Positions 4,130 through 7,100 of a stretch of 64,000 nt of DNA are shown here, piece after piece (within the stretch, counting starts at the first letter, position 1; each line of letters starts with the position of its first letter). Source of the DNA: Escherichia coli (GTDB lineage: Bacteria; Pseudomonadota; Gammaproteobacteria; Enterobacterales; Enterobacteriaceae). The stretch is from the NCBI RefSeq assembly GCF_003018255.1, contig NZ_CP027440.1; one strand, given 5' to 3'. Made by a program: the position numbers.

Positions 4130-7100
4130 TGAATTTTATAACCCAGAACGGGCGTCAGAAATGACGCCTTTTTTATTGCAGAAAAGCGAGAGGTAATTAT
4201 GCGTAAACTTTATGCCGCCATTTTGTCCGCAGCCATTTGTCTGGCCGTATCCGGTGCGCCTGCATGGGCATCTGAACATCAGTCCACGCTGAGCGCGGGG
4301 TATCTTCATGCCCGGACCAACGTTCCCGGCAGTGATGATCTGAACGGGATTAACGTGAAATACCGTTATGAGTTTACGGATACGCTGGGGCTGGTGACGT
4401 CATTCAGCTATGCAGGAGACAAGAATCGCCAGCTGACCCGTTACAGCGATACCCGCTGGCATGAAGATTCCGTGCGTAACCGCTGGTTCAGCGTGATGGC
4501 GGGGCCGTCTGTGCGCGTGAATGAATGGTTCAGCGCGTATGCGATGGCGGGTATGGCTTACAGCCGTGTTTCGACTTTTTCCGGGGATTACCTTCGCGTA
4601 ACTGACAACAAGGGGAAAACGCACGATGTGCTGACCGGAAGTGTTGACGGTCGCCACAGCAACACGTCTCTGGCGTGGGGGGCTGGCGTGCAGTTTAACC
4701 CGACCGAATCCGTGGCCATTGATGTCGCTTATGAAGGTTCCGGCAGTGGTGACTGGCGCACTGACGGGTTCATCGTGGGTGTTGGTTATAAATTCTGATT
4801 AGCCAGGTAACACAGCGTTATGACAGCCCGCCGGTTCAGGCGGGCTTTTTTGTGGGGTGAATATGGCAGTAAAGATTTCAGGTGTACTGAAAGACGGCAC
4901 AGGAAAACCGGTACAGAACTGCACAATCCAGCTGAAAGCAAAACGTAACAGTACCACGGTGGTGGTGAACACGCTGGCCTCAGAAAATCCGGATGAAGCC
5001 GGGCGTTACAGCATGGACGTTGAGTACGGTCAGTACAGCGTTATTCTGTTGGTGGAGGGATTCCCGCCGTCACATGCCGGGACCATCACCGTGTATGAAG
5101 ATTCTCAACCCGGTACGCTGAATGATTTTCTCGGTGCCATGACGGAGGATGATGCCCGTCCGGAGGCACTGCGTCGTTTTGAACTGATGGTGGAAGAGGT
5201 GGCGCGTAACGCGTCCGCGGTGGCACAGAACACGGCAGCCGCAAAGAAGTCAGCCAGCGATGCCAGCACATCTGCCCGTGAGGCGGCAACCCGTGCGACT
5301 GATGCTGCAGGCTCAGCACGCGCAGCCAGCACGTCAGCCGGACAGGCCGCGTCGTCGGCTCAGTCAGCGTCTTCCAGCGCAGGAACGGCATCAACAAAGG
5401 CCACTGAAGCATCAAAAAGTGCTGCCGCTGCTGAGTCCTCAAAAAGCGCGGCGGCCACCAGTGCCGGTGCGGCGAAAACGTCAGAAACGAATGCGGCAGC
5501 GTCACAACAATCAGCAGCCACTTCTGCATCCACCGCGACCACGAAAGCGTCAGAAGCTGCCACCTCAGCCCGGGATGCGTCGGCTTCAAAAGAGGCGGCA
5601 AAATTATCAGAAACGAGCGCAGCCTCGAGCGCCAGTAGTGCAGCCTCCTCGGCAACGGCAGCAGGCAATTCCGCGAAGGCGGCCAAAACGTCTGAGACAA
5701 ACGCTAAGTCCTCTGAAACGGCAGCAGAACAGAGTGCCTCCGCAGCAGCAGGCTCAAAAACAGCGGCTGCATTATCTGCCAGTGCCGCGTCAACAAGTGC
5801 CGGGCAGGCCTCAGCCAGTGCCACCGCCGCCGGAAAATCGGCAGAAAGTGCTGCATCGTCTGCTTCAACAGCCACAACGAATGCTGGCGAAGCCGCTGTA
5901 CAGGCCAGCGCAGCAGCGAGGTCTGCTTCCGCAGCGAAGACATCCGAGACGAACGCGAAAGCGTCGGAAACCAGCGCAGAATCCTCAAAAACGGCTGCCG
6001 CATCGTCCGCCAGTTCGGCGGCGTCATCGGCATCATCTGCGTCTGCTTCAAAAGATGAGGCGACCAGACAGGCGTCAGCAGCAAAGGGCAGCGCCACGAC
6101 GGCATCCACGAAGGCGACAGAGGCAGCTGGCAGTGCGACGGCGGCAGCTCAGAGCAAAAGTACGGCGGAATCCGCGGCAACGCGCGCCGAGACAGCGGCA
6201 AAACGGGCAGAGGATATTGCATCCGCCGTGGCGCTTGAGGATGCGAGCACGACGAAAAAGGGGATAGTACAACTCAGCAGTGCGACTAACAGCACTTCCG
6301 AGTCACTGGCGGCAACGCCAAAAGCCGTTAAGGCCGCGTATGAGCTGGCTAACGGGAAATACACCGCACAGGATGCAACGACAGCACAGAAAGGGATAGT
6401 TCAGCTTAGCAACGCGACCAACAGCACATCTGAAATGCTGGCGGCAACGCCAAAGTCGGTAAAGGCAGCCTATGACCTTGCTAACGGGAAATATACTGCT
6501 CAGGACGCTACGACAGCACAAAAAGGAATTGTCCAGCTCAGTAGTGCAACCAACAGCGCATCTGAAACGCTTGCCGCGACACCGAAAGCAGTGAAAGCAG
6601 CTAATGATAATGCGAATGGTCGGGTACCTTCTGCCCGTAAGGTGAATGGTAAGGCGCTTTCATCGGATATAACACTGACGCCGAAAGATATTGGTACGCT
6701 TAACTCAACAACAATGTCATTCAGCGGTGGTGCTGGTTGGTTCAAATTAGCAACGGTAACCATGCCACAGGCGAGTTCTGTTGTTTCAATTACGTTGATT
6801 GGTGGCGCGGGATTTAACGTGGGGTCACCTCAACAGGCAGGTATATCTGAACTTGTTTTGCGTGCAGGTAATGGTAATCCGAAGGGGATTACTGGTGCTT
6901 TATGGCAGCGCACATCGACAGGGTTTACAAATTTTGCCTGGGTCAATACATCTGGTGATACTTACGATATTTACGTTGCAATCGGAAATTATGCGACTGG
7001 TGTAAATATTCAATGGGATTATACCAGTAATGCCAGCGTGACGATTCATACGTCACCAGCATATTCTGCTAATAAGCCGGAAGGGTTAACGGACGGTACA

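Follow-up and report, generated by a model that had tools for sequence, protein, structure and literature searches.

What does it mean for a phage gene to be enclosed by transcription terminators? The question is raised by the gene lom in a stretch of 64,000 nucleotides from Escherichia coli (NCBI RefSeq assembly GCF_003018255.1, contig NZ_CP027440.1; this whole stretch is referred to here as the window), where lom lies in the tail region of a lambda-like prophage, between the end of the gene J and the side tail fibre gene stf, with a hairpin and a run of T on either side. A sequence-only reading had taken the two hairpins to be lom's own terminators and the gene to be a moron-like unit inside the tail module, expressed autonomously in the lysogen and perhaps contributing a host phenotype through adhesion or serum resistance. 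A moron has been defined as an extra unit with its own promoter, its own terminator and a deviant GC content (PMC3594210), and the question is which of these belong to lom. When its anatomy and its presumed mode of working are taken together, the locus is probably the standard lom cassette of lambda-like prophages, that is, an accessory gene set between a terminator that belongs to J and a second one that lies ahead of stf.

The two hairpins that flank lom

The upstream hairpin, T1, occupies 4150–4177 on the + strand, and the downstream hairpin, T2, occupies 4825–4851 on the same strand between lom and stf; the terminators that had been proposed on both sides of lom are confirmed to within a few bases. 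Specifically, T1 has a stem of eight pairs, five of them G-C (GGGCGTCA/TGACGCCT, 4150–4169), with a four-nucleotide GAAA loop, and is followed immediately by TTTTTTATT (4169–4177). It folds with an energy of −14.7 kcal/mol (z = −3.6), and none of 200 shuffled sequences folds as well. The stem of T2 likewise has eight pairs, of which seven are G-C (AGCCCGCC/GGCGGGCT, 4825–4846), with a six-nucleotide loop, GGTTCA, and then TTTTTT (4846–4851); the hairpin alone has an energy of about −18 kcal/mol, and in context it reaches −22.4 kcal/mol (z = −3.2 against shuffles). Both therefore have the anatomy of intrinsic terminators, which is a G+C-rich stem of about 5–10 pairs, a short loop and an immediate T-run on the coding strand of the operon, and both are oriented with lom and with late-operon transcription. 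Bidirectional terminators were ruled out, as the opposite strand of T1 and of T2 carries no T-run. A strict scan, with minima of 7 pairs, 5 G-C pairs and 6 T in 8 positions, finds four sites on the + strand of the window, two of which are those that flank lom; the expectation is about 0.6 per 64 kb, counting both strands, in random sequence with the same first-order composition. Within the first 10 kb, no terminator-like site ranks above T1 and T2. A search of 3600–5400 against Rfam at a permissive threshold gave only two chance-level eukaryotic matches.

The comparative evidence is stronger for T1 than for T2. Related junctions were collected from IMG/VR by a pattern search that included the stf start, a pattern biased towards lom-carrying loci; of the 122 junctions recovered, 112 have at least 900 nucleotides of upstream sequence, and 103 of these show a T-run, a Shine-Dalgarno (SD) sequence and an ATG at the position of lom. 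An intact T1 hairpin stands directly before the T-run in 101 of the 103, the two exceptions being one that is split by IS4 and one with a single mismatch. There are at least six distinct versions of the stem among these loci, and two stem positions have changed on both sides (G-C to A-U and C-G to U-A). Across an alignment of 18 distinct variants, 99.3% of the cells are paired, and pairing drops to 35–63% in a control in which the partner is slid by one to three columns. Furthermore, other lineages carry at this site replacement hairpins that cannot be aligned with T1, with the T-run kept. T2 is present in 122 of 122 loci, with differences that are confined to the loop or still allow G-U pairing, and the evidence for its evolutionary maintenance is to that extent the weaker. 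Conservation, compensatory changes and replacement hairpins with their T-run together argue that the hairpins are selected and not accidental; for T1, the pattern of sequence variation indicates that it is under structural selection. Public annotation agrees, in that T1 is marked as a terminator in the records of phages 434 and 21, and T2, which is nearly identical in lambda, is marked as one in phage 434.

Termination is one function that could be under such selection, and it is worth considering another, namely that the hairpins work mainly at the RNA level, as barriers to 3′ exonucleases or as sites of processing by which the J, lom and stf-tfa segments of the long late transcript come to differ in stability. 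Conservation of the stem through compensatory change fits any function of an RNA structure, and no sizeable gap between genes of the tail region lacks a terminator-like hairpin. In lambda, RNA polymerase modified by the Q protein is resistant to terminators, and hairpins within the late operon are tolerated, so read-through of these hairpins would be expected in late transcription, as a role at the RNA level would have it. Against this stands the conserved run of at least six T directly after each hairpin, a hallmark of termination that a stability element would not need and that the replacement hairpins of other lineages keep as well. Roles in termination and in stability are not mutually exclusive, and we consider it improbable that the RNA-level role is the principal one.

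Two side observations concern the T1 hairpin. IS4 has inserted into it twice, once in a lom-less phage (Lambda_4B5, LR595863.1; 1060–2500 of the locus, L127) and once upstream of lom in an IMG/VR locus (L112), and the target-site duplication is the palindromic stem-loop of T1 itself, (C)ACCAGAAATGGTG; the terminator appears to be a preferred target of IS4. In addition, two IMG/VR homologs of 4150–4169 (L103 and L033) have the same stem with the loop reverse-complemented (GCGCCATTTCTGGCGC as against GCGCCAGAAATGGCGC), a variant that amounts to an inversion of the whole hairpin with its structure preserved.

An accessory gene between J and stf

Comparison with relatives that have no lom separates the two hairpins. 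In lom-less lambdoid phages the order is J, a hairpin of the T1 family, TTTTTTATT and then directly TGTGGAGTGAATATGG, which is the leader and start of stf. Relative to these, the window carries an extra block at about 4178–4850 on the + strand (placed by eye at the junctions) that starts right after the T-run of T1 and contains a leader with an SD, lom, a 3′ untranslated region and T2; its ends are ambiguous by a few T because both fall inside T-runs. A census by BLAST with queries spanning each type of junction places the lom cassette with both flanks in 4083 of 5426 complete E. coli genomes, with a median of 2 copies and up to 14, and the lom-less J-T1-stf junction in 1189 of the 5426 and in 29 phage records. 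On this comparison of sequences, lom is accessory: otherwise collinear phages either carry it between J and stf or lack it.

The same comparison bears on whose terminators these are. T1 occurs without lom in phages 3W, 21, 2E9 (Lambda_2E9) and PhiR63_1, and because lom-less phages retain it, T1 is to be regarded as the terminator of J and not as lom's own. T2 is part of the extra block, but it too has been found without lom: in a single locus (L062, 7183–9233, − strand) a hairpin of the T2 type, which is the lambda type, lies directly 5′ of stf. Neither terminator is thus exclusive to lom, and the claim that lom is bracketed by terminators of its own does not hold as worded. L062 is a lambdoid tail region in which the C-terminus of J differs and two extra open reading frames (ORFs; 123 and 269 amino acids) take the place of lom after it; homology breaks exactly at the 5′ edge of the T2-type hairpin, after which comes stf.

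The gene inside the block is intact. lom (4199–4798, + strand) encodes 199 amino acids and is preceded by the SD GAGAGG at 4188–4193, five nucleotides 5′ of the ATG, at a position equivalent to an annotated ribosome-binding site (RBS) in phage 434; a 26-nucleotide spacer separates its stop codon from the stem of T2. The protein matches PF06316 over its full length (E = 8.8e-119; 394.8 bits against a cut-off of 23; residues 1–199 on profile positions 1–199) and PHROG 108, 'Lom outer membrane protein' (E = 2.5e-109). Its relatives in the PDB include solved 8-stranded barrels, namely lambda Lom (9wso, E = 1e-47) and, at E values of about 4e-18, OmpX and Ail. The N-terminus, MRKLYAAILSAAICLAVSGAPAWA, combines a hydrophobic core with an AXA site, from which a signal peptide of 24 amino acids ending in AWA is predicted by eye, and the C-terminal end is GYKF. 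Judged by these matches, lom is an intact, full-length gene for an outer-membrane beta-barrel protein of the Ail/Lom family with its own SD. Chain C of PDB entry 9wso is a solved structure that includes lambda's 'Outer membrane protein lom' (206 amino acids); a literature search for a paper on this entry found none.

Is such a gene a moron in the sense of the definition? Presence or absence at a fixed site and a strong factor-independent terminator downstream are found for lom, the latter with the caveat that L062 introduces. Its own promoter and a deviant base composition are not seen in the sequence. A test of composition for a foreign origin found the GC content of lom no different from that of the neighbouring tail genes: 55.7% (60.5% at third codon positions, GC3), against 52–59% for M, L, K, I-J and stf. 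What is left is the flanking itself, and it proves to be common in the operon. The record of phage 434 annotates terminators between I and J and between J and lom, so that J, an essential gene, likewise has a terminator on each side, and further ones between D and E and after tfa. As a side observation, terminator-like hairpins lie at I|J and at D|E in lambdoid late operons, where they flank essential genes; the phage 434 sequence has such hairpins at 6100–6120 and 15466–15485. Likewise, E. coli A5, which carries an intact relative of this prophage, has at I|J the hairpin AAACCGCC-TCCG-GGCGGTTT followed by TATCGTTTAT (4355–4395 of the locus, L128); it is missing from the window because of a deletion across I and J. 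In the tail tip region a terminator-like hairpin occupies each of the three sizeable gaps between genes. Flanking by terminators does not identify a moron, as J in phage 434 is flanked likewise.

A fully self-contained moron, with its own promoter and terminators, autonomous transcription in the lysogen and a phenotype for the host, for instance adhesion or serum resistance, therefore seems to us a doubtful description of lom. It would account for the polymorphism at a fixed site, for the strength of T2 and for the fact that lom is intact in a prophage that has become tail-defective, and lambda Lom appears in reviews among the moron products that a prophage expresses (PMC3594210, PMC7067206). 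It is at odds with the retention of T1 where lom is absent, with the unremarkable GC content, with the terminator-flanked J of phage 434, whose record has no promoter for lom, and with the lack of a promoter in the extra block or in the 29 nucleotides after T1. Of the moron-like unit that had been proposed, accessory presence, T2 and the label in the literature stand; the promoter, the compositional difference and the argument from flanking do not. The proposed phenotype also needs narrowing: the link of Lom to serum resistance is dated and loosely attributed, as a table in PMC8065619 gives Lom for adhesion and bor/Bor for serum resistance.

The gene upstream of the cassette in the window is a fusion ORF, I′-′J (2675–4132, + strand; stop codon 4130–4132), that joins amino acids 1–65 of the tail assembly protein I to the C-terminal ~420 amino acids of J, including the receptor-binding domain, and has Pfam matches to Lambda_tail_I, Ig_J_second, Phage_Tail_Tip and Ig_GpJ_C. 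Compared with the closest genomes, for example E. coli A5, which is 100% identical on both sides, the prophage lacks about 2.67 kb and is tail-defective; the junction lies near 2870 within a 10-bp direct repeat, CGGATTGCCG, a setting typical of spontaneous deletions. The loss leaves lom, stf and tfa intact. The RBS of stf, GGGGTGA, starts right at the end of the T-run of T2, with the ATG at 4863; stf (4863–7778, + strand) has Pfam matches to phage_tail_N, Phage_fiber_2 and Collar, and the tail fibre assembly gene tfa (7778–8362, + strand; Caudo_TAP) is the last late-operon gene within the window. No clear terminator was found on the + strand 3′ of tfa in the window. A DUF2971 gene follows directly on the opposite strand (8466–9269), and in A5 it is followed in turn by DUF4236 and DUF3800 genes; the whole looks like cargo at the end of the prophage.

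Transcription of lom in lytic growth and in the prophage

Only 29 nucleotides separate the T-run of T1 from the ATG of lom, and they hold no recognisable sigma-70 promoter. The best promoter candidate nearby, GTGACC-18-TTTAAT at 3917–3946, lies inside J and upstream of T1, and about 200 other sites in the window score at least as well by the weight matrix. A weight-matrix scan of the equivalent region of lambda likewise gave no candidate between terminator and ATG. Inspection by hand near lom for −10-like hexamers in the T-run, an extended −10, and sigma-E or PhoP-like boxes turned up nothing convincing. The curated record of phage 434 annotates pL, pR, pRM, pRE, pI and paQ and no promoter for lom, and among the lom-less relatives we saw none that had arisen as a recent deletion of a promoter present in the window. 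The autonomous expression that had been proposed thus finds no promoter to rest on, and the sequence does not show where a lysogenic lom transcript starts; a promoter of an unconventional or factor-dependent kind may lie beyond the reach of such scans.

The literature places lom in both phases of the phage life cycle. Passages in two papers (PMC7067206, PMC12366544), both citing Liu et al. 2013, count lom and bor with the few genes that the lambda prophage expresses. In the lytic cycle lom is strongly expressed (PMC9836094) and rises sharply late in infection (PMC12366544), and it is dispensable for plaque formation (PMC10695390). According to a 2025 study, over-expression of Lom blocks lambda-vir and not T7, and Lom at prophage level gives the lysogen no protection from lambda-vir in the laboratory (PMC12366544). 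A small RNA of Phi24B near lom (PMC4426718) was set aside because its genomic context is different.

A rival view is that lom is mainly a late gene that serves the phage and not the host. Made in bulk from the Q-antiterminated transcript, Lom would sit in the dying cell's outer membrane and reduce wasteful re-adsorption or superinfection, and the terminators would be generic punctuation of the late operon with nothing specific to lom. An extra block without a visible promoter is what such a gene would show, and so are the hairpins of phage 434 (D|E, I|J and after tfa) and of the intact relative (I|J); the strong lytic expression, the dramatic late rise and the block of lambda-vir but not T7 point the same way (PMC9836094, PMC12366544). 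This view sits less well with the failure of prophage-level Lom to shield against lambda-vir (PMC12366544), with the passages that describe lom as on in lysogens while its neighbours are silent (PMC7067206, PMC12366544), and with the preservation of lom in a prophage no longer able to make tails. Furthermore, the lom allele of the window type adjoins ten different clusters of the C-terminal, receptor-binding end of J, which argues against a tight co-adaptation of Lom and J, and a matched pairing of Lom and J alleles was rejected on this ground. That lom is mainly a phage-serving late gene is conceivable and, in our judgement, unlikely.

The standard-cassette reading would accommodate both phases. 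In lytic growth, Q-modified polymerase from the late promoter would ignore T1 and T2, and strong transcription would take in lom along with J, stf and tfa. In the repressed prophage, where there is no Q, T1 would block stray transcription coming out of the tail genes and T2 would stop a lom transcript short of stf-tfa, with the outcome that a low level of lom is made alone.

Several points weigh against this reading and temper our confidence in it. Neither a consensus scan of 1–10000 nor a weight-matrix scan of 3800–4215 found a usable −35/−10 pair in the 29-nucleotide gap. A microarray study did not detect lom in the lambda lysogen, and the same source describes the lom promoter as little known (PMC2147009, the only match in a literature search for the phrase 'lom promoter'). 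That T1 and T2 terminate transcription, and that Q-modified polymerase reads through them, is presumed from the biology of lambda; the window excludes the immunity and Q region of the prophage, which is moreover tail-defective. Finally, given the T2-type hairpin without lom in L062, it is ambiguous which terminator came with lom.

It is also worth considering that the lom block is promoterless and that lysogenic expression is gated at T1 itself, through an unconventional, factor-dependent start overlapping the T-run or through regulated read-through from a weak promoter in the end of J. We hold this to be highly doubtful; nonetheless, if true, T1 would be the control point for an outer-membrane protein of the prophage and not a simple stop, and such gating would explain why a lom promoter has never been mapped.

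The standard lom cassette is an ordinary and already known arrangement: lom as a moron of lambda is textbook knowledge, and the phage 434 record annotates both terminators. Because the arrangement is known and publicly annotated, and lom occurs in about three quarters of complete E. coli genomes, often in several copies, its description here matters little in itself. What is of use is the caution that a terminator-flanked gene in a Q-antiterminated late operon is not thereby shown to be a moron, as J is flanked likewise; in addition, the upstream terminator belongs to J and the block has no visible promoter. The site at which lysogenic transcription of lom starts bears on whether Lom serves the host, through adhesion, or the phage, through a block to re-adsorption.

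Comparison with known systems

It is informative to set the locus beside the systems that resemble it most. Lambda has the same gene order, J-lom-stf-tfa, with a hairpin and T-run at J|lom and, at lom|stf, a hairpin and T-run nearly identical to those of the window, and its Lom is of the same Ail/Lom type with the C-terminal 20 residues identical. The two proteins differ in being only 45% identical overall (199 amino acids in the window, 206 in lambda); in addition, the J-lom hairpin of lambda is of unrelated sequence, CGTCCGGGAACGGGCG and then TTTTATTAT, and the receptor-binding end of J is different.

Phage 434 (OL657226.1) is closer. From the last ~40 nucleotides of J through lom, annotated there as 'Ail/PagC/OmpX porin', into stf it is about 95% identical in nucleotide sequence, and both terminators and both RBSs are annotated at homologous positions. 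Its T1 stem differs by a compensatory G-C to A-U change (GGGCACCA/TGGTGCC), its J has another receptor-binding domain, and it is a complete phage, whereas the prophage in the window has lost most of I and J.

The lom-less phages (21, 3W, 1W, 4A7 and Lambda_2E9) share the end of J, the T1 family with its T-run, and the leader and start of stf; they differ in having no lom and no second terminator, so that the RBS of stf comes directly after T1. Lastly, the morons of the HK97 gene 15 type (Juhala/Hendrix) resemble lom in being an extra gene inside the tail operon that collinear relatives lack and that is followed by a factor-independent terminator, and the likeness extends to lambda, where lom is reported to be expressed from the prophage (PMC3594210). 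In contrast to that type, the lom of the window has no recognisable promoter of its own and no difference in composition from its neighbours.

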